Source of the DNA: a virus
Lineage: Duplodnaviria > Heunggongvirae > Uroviricota > Caudoviricetes
DNA: 34,102 bases
Virus record (IMG/VR): IMGVR_UViG_2778261316_000008
Direction: 5' to 3' (one strand)
The translations under genes were made by a program, and so were the position numbers. Below, piece after piece: positions 1 to 8,613 of this stretch. The notes beneath the pieces were generated by a model, which made no database searches, was not told the origin of the DNA, and saw only the letters and a list, made by a program, of their open reading frames with translations. Position 1 is the stretch's first letter. Each line of letters opens with the position of its first letter.

Positions 1-330
1 TCAGTAACCAAACAACGCCCATTTTAGTAGTGCATCTGCATCATTCTTCAAACTTCCAAGGTCTTTTCCTGGTGAAATTGTTGCCGCTACACCAAGCGCA
101 TTAAGTCGAAGCTGTGCCTGATGGAATCGACTCTCTTGCTGTAGGCCCAGAATTTCATTTTTATTCGCGACAGCATAACGCTGAATGGCTGACTTCGATA
201 CGCTGTAACCTTTATCGGCTAACCAGAGCGAGAGCCATTCATAACTGGTGAAGTTTGTGCGCGATAATTCGCTATGAAGCTCGGCACGAACATCCTCTGG
301 CAGTTTATCAATATTGCTTGGTCTGGCCAT
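1..330 (-). CDS. DUF3486-like protein (short paralogue of the gp27-like ORF at 12611-13156)
   Basis: ATG at 330 preceded by AGGAGG; N-terminal ~55 aa (MARxSxIxKLPEDVR...GYxxSKSAIxRY) clearly alignable with the 181-aa ORF at 12611; stop codon at bases 1-3. Confidence 0.6.
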   Translation of the reverse strand: MARPSNIDKLPEDVRAELHSELSRTNFTSYEWLSLWLADKGYSVSKSAIQRYAVANKNEILGLQQESRFHQAQLRLNALGVAATISPGKDLGSLKNDADALLKWALFGY

Positions 331-349
331 CTGTCCTCCTATAAATAGC

Positions 350-739
350 TTAGCTATTTTCCACCTTCTCTGAATCAGAGTCACCATCAAACAGTTTGCC
401 CTGCATCCGATCCAATTCTTCTTTTCTGACCCGCTTCACCACGCTGTAAACCCACTGTAGTGAAACACCGAATTTGCGGGCCAGTTCGTGATGGTTGCGT
501 CCGTCAAACTCCAGGAAGATTTCCCGGTCGCGCTGACTGACCTTCCAGACCATGCCCATCGGAAAATAGACGTTTTGCCCACCCCAGACCTGCATCATGC
601 GGTTCGCGACGGCCTGACCAATCTGGTCGGCAACTGCGGGTTCGATATCAATAATCTCGCGGACGGTCTCAGAGGTATGCTGTGCCAGTTCTACCAACAG
701 TTCCGGCCCTTTACTACGAAACTGATTCAGGTCACTCAT
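350..739 (-). CDS. Mor/C-family transcriptional activator (middle/late gene activator)
   Basis: 129-aa ORF from ATG at 739 (MSDLNQ...); C-terminal region (ELARKFGVSLQWVYSVVKRVR) has the HTH pattern of Mor-family activators; position after GemA-like gene as in Mu. Confidence 0.75.
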   Translation of the reverse strand: MSDLNQFRSKGPELLVELAQHTSETVREIIDIEPAVADQIGQAVANRMMQVWGGQNVYFPMGMVWKVSQRDREIFLEFDGRNHHELARKFGVSLQWVYSVVKRVRKEELDRMQGKLFDGDSDSEKVENS

Positions 740-1164
740 TGCTTCACTCCCGCAGCTCTGCTCTGCCACTTCTTCAGTTTCTCAATCACGCTACTTGCCT
801 GCTCATTGCTGAGCCAGCGTAACGCGCTGATGCCTGTTTCCCGTTTAACCCACAGCGCCAGCGCCTGCTCTGAACTGTCTCGGACGATGCCTGCGGCAGC
901 CATTTCAAGCCATAGCGCACGGATTTTCTTTGACTGCGGATGACTATCCAGCGGTAAGCCGGACCTGGCTTTCCCGGCAGGCTTAATGCGAAAGCCTTTA
1001 TTTTTCATGGATTCCAGCACGCGGTTTAGCTGTGGGGTATCCATCCCTTTGGTTGAGGCTTTGCCGGTCAGCCCCTGTAGCATCTGGCGGTAGGTGTCCT
1101 CATCCATCTGGAGGTCGCTGCGGGCAATATGAATGAGTTGAATAAGACGCTGCTTAGTCATCAT
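736..1164 (-). CDS. GemA-like protein (Mu gp16 family)
   Basis: ATG at 1164 (MMTKQRLIQLIHIARSDL...); motif LIxLIHxA...DDTYR...LxxxTGK resembles Mu GemA/gp16; 4-nt overlap with downstream activator gene. Confidence 0.65.
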   Translation of the reverse strand: MMTKQRLIQLIHIARSDLQMDEDTYRQMLQGLTGKASTKGMDTPQLNRVLESMKNKGFRIKPAGKARSGLPLDSHPQSKKIRALWLEMAAAGIVRDSSEQALALWVKRETGISALRWLSNEQASSVIEKLKKWQSRAAGVKQ

Positions 1165-1369: not shown

Positions 1370-1586
1370 AATGAATACCACCCCAGTTAATATGAATGTT
1401 ACGGGCTGTAGTAACCGGATCGTTATTCCACCATGCACCTGACATGTAATTTTTAACCTGTTCTCGTCCAGCGATAACGCCAATTTGAATGCCGGGCCTT
1501 ACGTTCTTAAAAAAGGCGCGTGCAAAAAGATATTTAGCAGCTGTACGGCAAGGGTTCGGTGCTTTCTTCTTACGCGATAACATCAT
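1359..1586 (-). CDS. hypothetical small basic protein
   Basis: 75-aa ORF with ATG at 1586 overlapping stop of upstream gene; no recognisable domain. Confidence 0.35.
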   Translation of the reverse strand: MMLSRKKKAPNPCRTAAKYLFARAFFKNVRPGIQIGVIAGREQVKNYMSGAWWNNDPVTTARNIHINWGGIHYDG

Positions 1587-2272
1587 CTTTCAGCCCTCAG
1601 TTTATGCTGCTCCTGCCCGCCAACGGGCTGATGCAGGCGGACGTTTTCCCCTTCTCTGTAACCGATGTGGCGGGACATGTCTGCGTCACGTGATTTCCCG
1701 GCCCCACGGCCCGTAGTTGTGCCTGAGTCAGGGTATTTTTGTTCAAGCCAGAGGCTTGCCAGCTCCCGTTCTTCGCGGGACATAGCAAATAAATGAACCT
1801 CGCTGCGCACGGCCAGAACCCAGCCTTCGGCAAATTTGTCACCACGGCTGGTCTTGGTCGTGTTTTTGATTCTTTTATTCTGCTGTCGAATATAGTTTTT
1901 ACGGGCCATGATTAATTGTCTGGCCAGTACCTCCCATGTATATGAGGCCAGTTCAACCCGGTCTTTATTACCGTAAAAGCCAACGCTGGGTTTAAAGCCG
2001 GAGTGAATAATAGACTTAACGCCAAATGCCACCTGGATAATGTCCAGCAGACCCAGCATGTAACGCGGCGGATTAACGCTACCTGCAGCCCAGTAGTTAC
2101 TGACGCTTTCATCAATATCACTGAGTGCGAGGTCAGCCTGGGTGATGTTATAGGCTTGCATCAGTTTCTGGGCGCGTTGCAGTGCCAGTGCCGCTTCATG
2201 GGGGTTATCGGATTTAGCCAGCGCAAGTAGCTTTTTTAACTTCTCCAGCAGCTTTTCATTATTCTGCGGCAT
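1583..2272 (-). CDS. DUF2786-like protein
   Basis: N-terminus KLLEKLKKLLALAKSDNPHEAALALQRAQKLM matches the pattern I associate with DUF2786 proteins; ATG at 2272. Confidence 0.55.
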   Translation of the reverse strand: MPQNNEKLLEKLKKLLALAKSDNPHEAALALQRAQKLMQAYNITQADLALSDIDESVSNYWAAGSVNPPRYMLGLLDIIQVAFGVKSIIHSGFKPSVGFYGNKDRVELASYTWEVLARQLIMARKNYIRQQNKRIKNTTKTSRGDKFAEGWVLAVRSEVHLFAMSREERELASLWLEQKYPDSGTTTGRGAGKSRDADMSRHIGYREGENVRLHQPVGGQEQHKLRAER

Positions 2273-2555
2273 AAGTCACCCCCAGGCGTTCGGCAAGGCG
2301 TTCCAGCTTTTTCTGCTTATGAAAATCAATCATCAGGCCCATTCCGTTGAGGCGGAACTGTTCAATCATGATTTCAACGTCAGCCAGTTCGCCAGCCAGA
2401 TCAACTTCACTTCCCAGTCCGTTCATGTTGCGGGCGGCAGCAGCGGCCAGCTCGGCGGCTTCTTCCATCAGCTTCAGCGCCTGTGCTTCAGGGCCAAAGG
2501 TTTTCAGGGCCAGATTGTATATAGTGGAGCGGTTATATAATTTCATGCCTTTCAT
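2259..2555 (-). CDS. hypothetical protein, possible MazG-like all-alpha NTP pyrophosphohydrolase
   Basis: ATG at 2555 (MKGMKLYN...), ATGA overlap with upstream Zn-ribbon gene; pattern EEAAELAAA...ELADVEIMIEQF...KQKKLERL resembles MazG-type motifs (recall, not searched). Confidence 0.45.
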   Translation of the reverse strand: MKGMKLYNRSTIYNLALKTFGPEAQALKLMEEAAELAAAAARNMNGLGSEVDLAGELADVEIMIEQFRLNGMGLMIDFHKQKKLERLAERLGVTYAAE

Positions 2556-2740
2556 TTTTTTGCCTCGCAGGGGATGAACTCCATGGCCGGAACTTCGGTG
2601 TAGTAATGCTGGCTGCAGTGAGGGCATACCAGCGTGATGAGGACGGCTGGCACATGGTATTTACCAGAGGTAATGACGCTGGCGTCGCTGAACTTCAGGG
2701 TGGTGATACCTTTCTTACAGTTGGAACATTTGATGGACAT
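2552..2740 (-). CDS. small zinc-ribbon protein
   Basis: 62 aa with CxxC (CSNC) and CxxC (CPHC) pairs spaced about 35 residues apart. Confidence 0.5.
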   Translation of the reverse strand: MSIKCSNCKKGITTLKFSDASVITSGKYHVPAVLITLVCPHCSQHYYTEVPAMEFIPCEAKK

Positions 2741-3719: not shown

Positions 3720-4886
3720 TTAAACTCCTTTGACGACGTCGGCGTTGACCTGCGGGACCCCGATTTCAGCAGCCAGATTCATGGCGGCTATCACCAGGTT
3801 ACTGACGGCCAGCGGATACAGCAGGCTGACCATGCTTTTACGGCTACTACCCAGATTGCTCAGACGGGCGCGGATGGCTTCCACTGCGCTGGCGTCCATG
3901 ATGTCGGCCAGCTGCTTACCGGCACGTTGCAGTTTGAACGTCAGAAACTCTTCGAGGCTGTTGTCCAGCGGCAGCAGTTCAACCACCTCGCAGCGCTGGA
4001 CGACCTCACGGACTTCCATGTTGCGTTCGGACAGTTTGTCCGCCAGTTCAGGCTGGCCAATCAGCACGATGGACAGCAGTTTTTTGAAGCCGGACTCCAG
4101 TTCGAAGAAGCGTTTAAGGTGCTTCAGCGTCGGAATGGGAAGGCTGTGGGCCTCCTCAATCACCAGAACGTGGCTGAAACCCGCCTGACTGCTGTCCTTC
4201 AGGACTCGGTGCAACTGGCGGAAGCGGGCGTCCTGGCTGCGCTTGATACTCTCCAGCGGCGCGATGGTGCTGATGATGGCCTCGGCGATAGCTGCCGCCT
4301 TCAGGGTTTTGCCCTTCACGTCGTTGTCTTCCATGGCGATGATGTATGGCTCGATTACAATCACCGGCGCGTTCTCGCGGTTGACGCGTTCAATCAGGTC
4401 GCGGCGCAGCGTGGATTTACCCGCACCGGACTCGCCGATAACCGCCAGAAAGCCACCATGGCGGGCGGTCTGGAACAGCGCCTCACGCACGTAGCGGATA
4501 TCCGGCGTGGTGAACACATCGTCCGCGCCCTGCATGGCTTCATCGGCGAACGGATCACGGAAAAGGCCAAACGCTTTTTTGGTTGCTGGAAATAACACCT
4601 GCTTTTTGAGTAACATGTTCTCTTCCTCACTGAGGTTGGTTTTATCGGTAGTACCCGCTGTACGGGGCGTGACAGCGCCCTGTGCAGCATCAAAACTTTT
4701 CGCTGTATCAATCCCCTTACTTTCCAGATACAACGCCAGACGCTGGCGTACCTCTTCGGGGCTGGTGCGTGGCCACTCGTTATGGTTCACAATCTGGGCC
4801 AGCGTGGCCTCGGAAACGGCGACGGCTCTTGCCACCACCGCCTGCGGGATGCGGGCCTCTTTCAGTTGTTGCTTCAGTACCAGCAT
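3720..4886 (-). CDS. AAA+ transposition ATPase (MuB/TniB/ExeA-like)
   Basis: Walker A GESGAGKST, Walker B-like hhhVIEEAH; N-terminal HTH-like region; directly downstream of DDE transposase; RBS GGAGGAAGG. Confidence 0.8.
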   Translation of the reverse strand: MLVLKQQLKEARIPQAVVARAVAVSEATLAQIVNHNEWPRTSPEEVRQRLALYLESKGIDTAKSFDAAQGAVTPRTAGTTDKTNLSEEENMLLKKQVLFPATKKAFGLFRDPFADEAMQGADDVFTTPDIRYVREALFQTARHGGFLAVIGESGAGKSTLRRDLIERVNRENAPVIVIEPYIIAMEDNDVKGKTLKAAAIAEAIISTIAPLESIKRSQDARFRQLHRVLKDSSQAGFSHVLVIEEAHSLPIPTLKHLKRFFELESGFKKLLSIVLIGQPELADKLSERNMEVREVVQRCEVVELLPLDNSLEEFLTFKLQRAGKQLADIMDASAVEAIRARLSNLGSSRKSMVSLLYPLAVSNLVIAAMNLAAEIGVPQVNADVVKGV

Positions 4887-4896
4887 GCCTTCCTCC

Positions 4897-6666
4897 TCAG
4901 TTACCGTTAACGATGCTGATAACGCTGTTGCGGGCCGGAGTGGTCAGGGTAACCATCACCTCATCCAGCGCGGCTTCAGGTACGCCATCCGGGTACTGCG
5001 CCGTTAACTGGCGGTAATGTTCCGGCGTCCAGATATGGCCGTTAGCGCCAAACTTCTCGCGCAGGGCTTTCGCCGCCTCCACATGGGTCAGCGGACGCTG
5101 CTCAATACGCGGCCCGCGCACGTCTGAAGCCTGACCGCGCTTCGGCATATAGGCCGGAAGCGTGGTGTCGTCGATATGTTTGTACGGGTCAAGTCGCCCG
5201 CCGAACGGCAGCGCCTTCGCCTTGCGTGCAGCAGCTGCATCGGTGGCGTTATCGGTGCCCGTAACCAGCTCTTCGATTTCTTTTGCCGCCGTCTGCGCCG
5301 GGGTCTCCGGCAGGGCTTTGTAGTTTTCGCCAAATACCGCCGCGCTTTCGGCAAAGCCGAACTCGTTCTTTCTGACCTCCTCGACCAGGAAGAACGTCTC
5401 GTGACCGTCCTCACCGGTCAGCACCACCTGCGCCACATCGCTGCGCCACGGGTTACGGGTAATCATCAGTTTTTCGCCGACCAGTACGCCCGGTACCGTC
5501 GAAACGTCAAACTCATTGCCCCGGAACGAGACGCGCAGTTTTGGTGTGACCTTACGGAGTTCCGGTGCGGCCACCGCCAGTTCGCGGCAAACCTCAACGG
5601 ATGGCGCTTTTTTCAGCTGGTCAGCAGTAATCTTCAGCCAGATATCCGTGCGGGTTTTACCGTGGCGGCTGTGGACCGCCGTGGCGTTAAAGTGGCTGCG
5701 CCATTTCACCGCCAGTGCGTTCAGTTCGTCCAGGCTATGAACCGGCTGGAATTTGAGACCCGGCTCCAGTTTACGTTCGATAATGTCACGGGCCTTTTCC
5801 ACCTGCCCGGTGGCGCGGGCGTTATGCGGCTTGTGCGCTATCAGATTGATGCCCAGCGAGCGGCACATGTTTTTCGTCATGCCAGCGGTGTTCGCCGAAC
5901 CGGGATCAAGGTAGAGTATTTTCGGCACGCCGTGCAGCACGTCCGCGCCGCCGCGCTCCTGCATGGCGTTGATAAGCACAGAACAGAGGTTCTCACCAGA
6001 TTCCGCACCCATCACGTACTCAACGTAAATCCAGCCGCTGGTATGGTCGGTAATCTCGTAACTCCACACGCGGTCACTGGCGATGCGGGCGATGTTGGCA
6101 GGCTTGTTCTTGTAGAACTTCGAGCTGTCCATCACCTGCAACCCTTTATGGCCGTTGCTCAGGTAGTAAAGCGTACAAAGTGAGGCATCAATCTCCCAGA
6201 CGTGATTGGGATGCAGGCTGGCCATCTCGGACGACGGGGCCGGTGCGTCAAGCTGTTCCGGGTGCAGACCATAGTTCCGCAGGGCGCGGCTGATGGTGTC
6301 CTCGGACAGCGGGAAAAACTCGCCTGTGGCCTCGTCCGTTCTGCCAGCAGTGATAAAGCCGTTTGACCGCAGGGTCTCCACCGCATCCGCGATGGAATAC
6401 AGGCGCTTACCGTTCTTACGGGTGGCCTCGCGCAGCGTGGCAGATATCAGCGCGGCTTCGTCGCGGCTCAGGGCACTGCGCCCGGCATCGGCGCGTTTTT
6501 TACGTTTGTCAGTCACTGATACCTCCTTCAGCTTGCGCAGCAGGGTGGCGCGGGAAATGCCCAGTTCGGCGCAGGCGGCATCATATATCGCACCACGCTT
6601 ACCATGCCCCGCGTCACGTGCCGCGCGGGCAACATAAACCAGTCGTTCAGTCAGGGCGGCACTCAT
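4897..6666 (-). CDS. DDE transposase (Mu A-like / rve integrase core)
   Basis: 589 aa; N-terminal HTH, integrase-core-like region (HPNHVWEIDAS...LYLDPGSANTA...) and C-terminal Mu-transposase-like region; RBS AGGAGG before ATG at 6666. Confidence 0.85.
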   Translation of the reverse strand: MSAALTERLVYVARAARDAGHGKRGAIYDAACAELGISRATLLRKLKEVSVTDKRKKRADAGRSALSRDEAALISATLREATRKNGKRLYSIADAVETLRSNGFITAGRTDEATGEFFPLSEDTISRALRNYGLHPEQLDAPAPSSEMASLHPNHVWEIDASLCTLYYLSNGHKGLQVMDSSKFYKNKPANIARIASDRVWSYEITDHTSGWIYVEYVMGAESGENLCSVLINAMQERGGADVLHGVPKILYLDPGSANTAGMTKNMCRSLGINLIAHKPHNARATGQVEKARDIIERKLEPGLKFQPVHSLDELNALAVKWRSHFNATAVHSRHGKTRTDIWLKITADQLKKAPSVEVCRELAVAAPELRKVTPKLRVSFRGNEFDVSTVPGVLVGEKLMITRNPWRSDVAQVVLTGEDGHETFFLVEEVRKNEFGFAESAAVFGENYKALPETPAQTAAKEIEELVTGTDNATDAAAARKAKALPFGGRLDPYKHIDDTTLPAYMPKRGQASDVRGPRIEQRPLTHVEAAKALREKFGANGHIWTPEHYRQLTAQYPDGVPEAALDEVMVTLTTPARNSVISIVNGN

Positions 6667-7587: not shown

Positions 7588-7893
7588 TTAGCGACTACCA
7601 GCCATAACACGCTGGTTAATTTCATTGATACGATCCTGCGCCCGCGCCATTTCGGTACTGTGCGCCATGGCGATTTGTAAGAGCTGGACTCCTGGGGCAA
7701 AACGCCCGTTATCCAGTTTCAGGGCCAGTCCTTCTTCGATAAGGGTATTGAGCGCCCGATTGATATTCGCCGGGGACTCGCCCAGAGCTGACGCCAGCTC
7801 GCCGTTAGAAACACCGTTCAGAGCGTGACCGCGTAAAGCCTTAAGGACACGCAAAATACGGGTACCTGAGCTTGATGTATTTGGTTTACTCAT
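7588..7893 (-). CDS. small winged-HTH DNA-binding protein (IclR-N-terminal-like)
   Basis: 101 aa; RILRVLKAL...VSNGELASALGESPANINRALNTLIEEGL resembles the IclR-type HTH. Confidence 0.5.
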   Translation of the reverse strand: MSKPNTSSSGTRILRVLKALRGHALNGVSNGELASALGESPANINRALNTLIEEGLALKLDNGRFAPGVQLLQIAMAHSTEMARAQDRINEINQRVMAGSR

Positions 7894-8114
7894 GACGCCT
7901 CCTTGAGGATGCCGGGGGTAACTTCTTTGCCTATTGCGACCGAAAGGTCTCGCAAAATCCGATAAGTCAAACGACCGCGTGGAAGTTCGCTTTTGCCTGC
8001 CCAGCGGCTGACAGCCTGGGTGACTGTTCGTGGCTCATAGCCCGCGTTAAGCGCGAACTGGCGCAAGCTACTGCCTCTTTCAACCAGCCGTGCCCGAACT
8101 TGTTGTTTGTTCAT
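7890..8114 (-). CDS. Ner-like DNA-binding protein (putative early/lytic regulator)
   Basis: 74 aa from ATG at 8114 (alternative GTG at 8120); LRQFALNAGYEPRTVTQAVSRW resembles Ner/Nlp family; first gene of the leftward arm, divergent from the repressor. Confidence 0.5.
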   Translation of the reverse strand: MNKQQVRARLVERGSSLRQFALNAGYEPRTVTQAVSRWAGKSELPRGRLTYRILRDLSVAIGKEVTPGILKEAS

Positions 8115-8202
8115 ATGCACCGTGTTCCTGTTGGGTTATGATGTACTCTATTGGGTCTATTGTACGCACCCGAACGGGTATGTCAAATTGAGATATGTTC
8201 AA
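8115..8202. promoter_or_regulatory. divergent promoter/operator region between Ner-like gene and repressor
   Basis: 88-bp gap between divergent start codons; two copies of CT(R)TTGGGT(Y)TA at 8129-8140 and 8149-8160 spaced 20 bp apart. Confidence 0.5.
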
Positions 8203-8613
8203 ATGAGTATAAAAGAGAGATTGCGCGAAGCGATGGATGCTAAGAGTCTGACAATTAAGGCATTGTCAGACTTGTCAAAAATTCCATATCGCTCACTTCA
8301 AAACTATCTGCGTGGAGAGAGAGAACCTAATGCAGAGGCTCTTGTTGCGCTAAGCACCCATTTGAACATATCAATAGATTGGCTACTTACTGGTAAAGGG
8401 GAAGCTGTTGGGGTAGAGAAAGCACAGCCAGCTAATCAGGAGCAGCATTTCAACCAGTCTGATCTGAAGTTATTGGAGCTGCTCAACCAACTGGAGCCAG
8501 AGGTGCGAAAAGAGTTGCTGCGAGGCGCTGAGGAAAAACAGCGAATGATTGATATGGAAAAACAGCTTAAGGAGCTGTCCGCAGCGTTCGAAAGATTAAA
8601 AAATACGGGTTAA
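8203..8613 (+). CDS. XRE-family HTH repressor (putative lysogeny repressor)
   Basis: ATG at 8203 (MSIKERLREAMD...); N-terminal Cro/C1-type HTH, C-terminal coiled coil; divergent from Ner-like gene; AT-rich. Confidence 0.7.
   Translation: MSIKERLREAMDAKSLTIKALSDLSKIPYRSLQNYLRGEREPNAEALVALSTHLNISIDWLLTGKGEAVGVEKAQPANQEQHFNQSDLKLLELLNQLEPEVRKELLRGAEEKQRMIDMEKQLKELSAAFERLKNTG

Follow-up and report, generated by a model that had tools for sequence, protein, structure and literature searches.

A MazG-like nucleoside triphosphate pyrophosphohydrolase gene in the early region of a BcepMu-like phage

The leftward early region and the gene at 2259..2555

The stretch of DNA analysed here (IMG/VR record IMGVR_UViG_2778261316_000008; 34,102 nucleotides, hereafter referred to as the window) corresponds to an essentially complete BcepMu-like transposable phage (about 34 kb). 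Over the first 8 kb it shares 97–99% identity with Escherichia phage Phi06_2974 B and Klebsiella phage KP12 clone 2, and 85% identity with the Bcepmuvirus Escherichia phage PhiKM. The early genes are read leftward, on the minus strand, in the order of a Ner-like gene (7588..7893), transposase A (4897..6666), a MuB-like ATPase (3720..4886), small accessory genes and, near the left end, GemA-like and Mor-like genes. A sigma70-like sequence (TTGACA-16-TACAAT; 8159..8186, minus strand) heads the leftward early operon, upstream of the Ner-like gene; it agrees with the consensus at 11 of 12 positions and, by this consensus match only, is likely to be the early promoter. A 168-aa open reading frame (ORF) on the opposite strand (8107..8613) could encode a repressor.

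Among the accessory genes, a minus-strand ORF at 2259..2555 (stop codon included) encodes a 98-aa, single-domain, MazG-like protein. Its translation is MKGMKLYNRSTIYNLALKTFGPEAQALKLMEEAAELAAAAARNMNGLGSEVDLAGELADVEIMIEQFRLNGMGLMIDFHKQKKLERLAERLGVTYAAE, in which we found both strings, EEAAELAAA and ELADVEIMIEQF, that the preliminary description had singled out as reminiscent of MazG-type enzymes. The ORF as defined mechanically is longer (122 aa; 2259..2627, minus strand), with the 98-aa form beginning at 2555. The start at 2555 is supported because its ATG overlaps the TGA of a 62-aa upstream ORF (ATGA), because a GAGG ribosome-binding site lies 7 nt 5′ of it, and because the same methionine is the first residue in the homologues. 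We rejected the start at 2627 because the longer form overlaps the upstream gene and the homologues have M1 of the 98-aa form as their first residue.

Comparison with the PhiKM homologue (74% amino acid identity) gave a dN/dS of 0.15, with 50 of the 87 nucleotide differences falling at third codon positions. As judged from this comparison, the 98-aa frame is under purifying selection and reflects more than chance; this low ratio, the ribosome-binding site and the start/stop overlap, taken together, establish the gene as real.

The upstream neighbour with the overlapping stop codon is a CxxC...CxxC zinc-ribbon gene (2552..2740, minus strand; PHROG 3401), beyond which lies a DUF3164 gene, and the downstream neighbour is a DUF2786/DUF7168 gene. 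Because the same-strand ORFs are tightly packed and no terminator-like site was found on the minus strand downstream of the 8186..8159 promoter, the 98-aa gene would belong to the operon read from this promoter, so that its placement in an early arm of the phage, as originally proposed, is reasonable. The downstream gene encodes 229 aa in the window (1583..2272), whereas KP12 has a coding sequence of 387 nt (about 128 aa; 1586..1972 of its record) in its place, so that the early region is mosaic here. In some Escherichia coli prophages an extra gene for a 90-aa hypothetical protein lies between the zinc-ribbon and MazG-like genes and breaks the ATGA coupling; in E. coli 730V1 (locus L010) it occupies 672..944, equivalent to a site between 2555 and 2552 of the window. 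The prophage segment is present in 24 of 5,426 complete E. coli genomes. The KP12 record (OM835952.1, clone KP12_2; locus L001) is filed under Vequintavirinae and contains a 34.9-kb BcepMu-like sequence that matches the window at 97% identity; a misfiled, co-isolated prophage is the probable explanation.

Assignment to the MazG superfamily

The 98-aa protein matched PHROG 2245, annotated as "nucleoside triphosphate pyrophosphohydrolase", at E=6e-31 over residues 4–96, and three further NTP-PPase/MazG PHROGs more weakly. The PHROG 2245 profile has 218 positions, of which the 98-aa protein covers 116–210 only, implying that some members carry N-terminal extensions. With the single sequence as query, the sole Pfam matches were PRA-PH (E=0.0019) and MazG (E=0.13), both of the expected clan and both short of the gathering score (19 versus 21.3 bits for PRA-PH, PF01503; 13 versus 22 bits for MazG, PF03819). 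An NCBIfam search of the protein gave no match above any cut-off, TIGR03188 scoring 15.6 against a required 42.7. A HisE/PRA-PH identity (PF01503, TIGR03188) was rejected on these sub-threshold scores and on the phage early context; HisE (for example 1yvw) differs in that the 98-aa gene lacks a histidine-biosynthesis setting and has phage early genes as its neighbours.

A direct search collected 85 homologues, and an exhaustive profile search returned 15,869 clusters at 50% identity (E≤0.001), 7,772 of them at E≤1e-10; family alignments were built from each of the two sets. Pfam MazG was matched at E<0.01 by 22 of 69 family members, and PRA-PH by four; a long member of the family matched Pfam MazG at 4.2e-8. 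When the family profile was compared with PDB sequences, matches were obtained to Bacillus MazG (5ie9, E=0.0026), iMazG (2q73 and 2q5z, 0.015 and 0.019), YpjD (2gta, 0.034), a PRA-PH protein (1yvw, 0.084) and a further MazG (1vmg, 0.11), and MazG/PRA-PH was the only natural family that recurred among the matches. The top-ranking matches were de novo designed coiled coils, which we rejected as low-complexity Ala/Glu artefacts. A search of the PDB with the single sequence yielded just a designed repeat protein and an unrelated hydrolase.

For a profile–profile comparison we collected the family of YpjD, using the sequence of PDB 2gta, whose identity was confirmed. Alignment of the two families with hhalign gave a probability of 87% (E=3.7e-6), with the EExxE and ExxD motifs in register over 45 columns that span the two central helices only; with the YpjD sequence alone in place of its family, the value was 80%. 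Thus, of the profile matches by which the MazG reading could be checked, those to PHROG 2245 and to the YpjD/MazG family proved significant, whereas that to Pfam MazG remained below threshold. On these profile scores, the 98-aa protein is a divergent member of the superfamily, lying outside the curated Pfam MazG model.

The metal-binding signature that defines the superfamily is E-x2-E-x(12–28)-E-x2-D, carried on two adjacent helices. In the 98-aa protein, the first acidic motif (EExxE, E31-E32-A-A-E35) is encoded at 2451..2465 on the minus strand, with E31 at 2465..2463 and E32-A-A-E35 at 2462..2451, and lies on helix 2. The second (ExxD, E56-L-A-D59; 2379..2390, minus strand, read from 2390 to 2379) lies on helix 3, and 20 residues separate E32-x2-E35 from E56-x2-D59. 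Read from the translated sequence, the signature is therefore present and the catalytic motif intact. In alignments, the EExxE motif coincides with EELGE of YpjD and EEMGE of 5ie9, and the ExxD motif with EEIGD of YpjD.

Conservation was evaluated in 148 domain copies from 143 proteins (142 representatives and the window protein) of no more than 50% mutual identity. E31 and D59 were each kept in 147 of the 148 copies, and E32, E35 and E56 in 144 each. The putative metal-binding residues, loss of which on alignment would have spoken against the assignment, are thus retained, all five at 97% or more. The last helix contributes K83-L-E-R86-L-A-E-R90 (2286..2309, minus strand), whose basic residues are also conserved (K83 in 146, R86 in 139 and R90 in 126 of 148). 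Nearly invariant besides these acidic residues were G21, Q25, A58, I62, M63, Q66, K83, R86 and L87, and the family as a whole is marked by the signatures ADVEIMxEQ and KLxRLxxR.

An AlphaFold2 monomer model built with the family alignment was all-helical and of high confidence, with a mean pLDDT of 93.3 and a pTM of 0.79. The predicted model accords with the all-alpha helical-bundle fold of the superfamily (about 90–110 residues per domain). In a Foldseek search of the PDB, MazG proteins headed the list, though with weak scores (E≥0.13, TM about 0.45–0.5), nothing falling below E=0.1; the helix packing of the monomer model may differ from that of the solved oligomers. The top matches in BFVD, with TM scores of 0.7–0.8, were viral entries named 'nucleoside triphosphate pyrophosphohydrolase'.

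The closest database entry, WP_032438819.1 of RefSeq, is 100% identical over the 98 residues, occurs in E. coli AF22 with the same gene arrangement around it, and already bears the name "nucleoside triphosphate pyrophosphohydrolase family protein". A few homologues bear similar names at JGI and NCBI, while older annotations, including those of phages KP12 and PhiKM, and most prophage and relative records read 'hypothetical protein'. Both the RefSeq name and that of PHROG 2245 are computational only, and our search for an experimentally characterised member of this subfamily found none. The assignment to the all-alpha MazG-type NTP pyrophosphohydrolases, which had first been made from sequence motifs, is now supported by the profile matches, the conserved acidic residues, the predicted fold and this identical named protein. 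The identity is correct but was already known, and the protein is a common, ordinary phage accessory enzyme; with the name already in PHROGs and in the newest RefSeq, the window has little significance beyond correct annotation.

Proposed activity and alternative readings

We consider it highly probable that the gene encodes a single-domain MazG-type NTP pyrophosphohydrolase of the early leftward operon of a BcepMu-like enterobacterial phage, with a putative role in sanitising the nucleotide pool. By analogy with solved MazG, iMazG and YpjD structures, the helical unit of about 90 residues would form dimers or tetramers, in which Mg2+ would be held by E31, E32 and E35 of one helix and by E56 and D59 of the next, and the phosphates would be contacted by K83, R86 and R90 of the last helix. 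A (d)NTP would then be cut between its alpha and beta phosphates to give a (d)NMP and pyrophosphate. Expressed early, the enzyme would most likely sanitise or reshape the nucleotide pool for phage replication, and this role could consist of the removal of non-canonical or unwanted (d)NTPs. Distant members of the family occur in unrelated tailed phages, flanked on one side by genes for replication or recombination (DnaB, PolA, VRR-NUC, Dam, RusA) and on the other by terminase; this is the usual site of phage nucleotide-metabolism accessory genes.

The small single-domain MazG proteins of known structure, namely iMazG from an integron cassette of Vibrio DAT722 (2q5z, 2q73), SSO3215 of Sulfolobus (1vmg), YpjD (2gta) and the Bacillus protein 5ie9, share only 18–26% identity with the 98-aa protein, and their substrate preferences are not transferable to it. 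YpjD, moreover, lacks the ADVEIMxEQ and KLxRLxxR signatures of the phage family, and its C-terminal half does not align. E. coli MazG (3cra, 3crc) consists of about 263 aa with two MazG domains in tandem, whereas the window protein has one in 98 aa and, unlike E. coli MazG, is encoded by a gene not linked to relA-mazEF. The MazG of cyanophage S-PM2 and Atd1 of Pectobacterium phage PcCB7V are likewise phage MazG-type pyrophosphohydrolases thought to act during infection; by tblastn of phage records we detected no close sequence relationship between either of them and the 98-aa protein. Candidate roles include dNTP sanitation or pool shaping, removal of (p)ppGpp, and anti-defence. The earlier suggestion of host takeover through manipulation of nucleotide pools or alarmones by the 98-aa protein is speculation.

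The S-PM2 and PcCB7V enzymes bear on the alarmone part of that suggestion, in which the 98-aa protein, as an Atd1-like hydrolase, would remove (p)ppGpp early in infection and thereby block the stringent response and toxin-mediated abortive infection. Atd1, which has a MazG-like single catalytic domain, hydrolyses ppGpp (Km about 50 µM) but not rNTPs, gave protection from the toxicity of TIR-STING and retron-TIR, and dampens abortive infection mediated by TIR (bioRxiv 10.1101/2022.06.09.495361); the window gene is of the same fold class and lies in an early operon of an enterobacterial phage. However, a tblastn search of 50,697 phage records (E≤1e-3) returned four BcepMu-like records only; PcCB7V was not among them, and this search thus gave no sign of a close relationship between the 98-aa protein and Atd1. 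Moreover, cyanophage MazG, for which the same action on (p)ppGpp had been predicted for years, neither binds nor hydrolyses (p)ppGpp and instead hydrolyses dGTP and dCTP (PMC6850273), and the 98-aa sequence contains no feature indicating a pocket for a guanosine 3′-diphosphate. We regard this alarmone-directed activity as unlikely. Since the characterised phage MazG proteins differ in activity, the substrate of the 98-aa protein cannot be read from its family membership.

It is similarly improbable, in our estimation, that the protein is a counter-defence enzyme that destroys a host immune nucleotide rather than a general sanitiser of the pool; its conceivable targets would be the ddhNTPs made by viperin, dUTP or dITP arising from defensive deaminases, or a signalling nucleotide. 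In its favour are the position of the gene among small accessory genes of the semi-essential early region, an N-terminal domain of two distant relatives (P0082 and P0084) that resembles the restriction-alleviation protein Lar (Pfam E=1.1e-4, below threshold) and an Apyc1-like metallo-beta-lactamase gene near one distant locus. Yet the Lar-like fusion is rare as well as sub-threshold, the zinc-ribbon protein of the window is dissimilar to the Lar-like domain, PADLOC gave no matches, and the replication-gene neighbours typical of the family fit ordinary nucleotide metabolism equally well. That counter-defence might be the dedicated function of the whole subfamily marked by ADVEIMxEQ and KLxRLxxR (about 15,900 clusters at 50% identity) is a tentative idea to which we attach little weight; if true, its members would destroy antiviral ddhNTPs, deaminase-derived dUTP or dITP, an alarmone or a signalling nucleotide, as opposed to performing generic house-cleaning. 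A further reading dispenses with catalysis and takes the protein for a small helical regulator or a protein-binding adaptor, its acidic motifs being a relic or due to chance. dUTPases that act as SaPI derepressors are a comparable case, Ala/Glu-rich helices do draw spurious matches, as the designed coiled coils at the top of the PDB profile search illustrate, and the single sequence scored below the Pfam thresholds; we judge this reading very improbable. The pool-sanitising pyrophosphohydrolase is the reading that we prefer. The biochemical question is what this widespread small phage MazG subfamily hydrolyses, and whether it does so for replication or against host defence, a question on which the window adds no special handle.

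Architectural variants among the relatives

The N-terminal extensions within the family are heterogeneous. A Pfam scan of 67 longer relatives revealed no consistent fused partner, the only matches being singletons (HTH, PIN, HAD), and at least two CxxC-like motifs were present in just 7 of 36 N-terminal extensions. In P0082 and P0084 (loci L003–L006, from non-Mu phages), the Lar-like domain is Cys-rich and is fused to the N-terminus of the MazG-like domain, the fusion genes lying between replication genes and terminase. These fusions had prompted the idea that the zinc-ribbon and MazG-like genes of the window are functionally linked, with a possible connection to restriction alleviation; we dropped it because the zinc-ribbon protein is not similar to the Lar-like domain, because the Lar match is below threshold, and because the two genes are separated by the inserted gene in some prophages.

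At the distant locus L007, the metallo-beta-lactamase-fold gene (1..686) has a weak Pfam match to Anti-Pycsar Apyc1 and is located some 5 kb upstream of the MazG-like gene; Dam and a HicAB pair are also present at this locus. Only a few relatives (P0089, P0096, P0129 and P0201) have the domain in two or three tandem copies, recalling the two-domain MazG of E. coli. The close relatives P0022, P0025 and P0026 (81–88% identical) have 169 aa with an added C-terminal segment of about 71 aa (…KKLPRRELLEDWCGAVP…) that gave no Pfam match; in P0022 a repeated LGVTY…AAE flanks this extension on both sides, which gives the impression that the 3′ end of the gene has received an in-frame module. Finally, P0074 (94 aa, from an ENA contig) is identical to the window protein over residues 1–37 and HisE-like (PF01503) over the remainder; the junction falls exactly at EEAAELA, so that this shared motif probably seeded a chimera during assembly.
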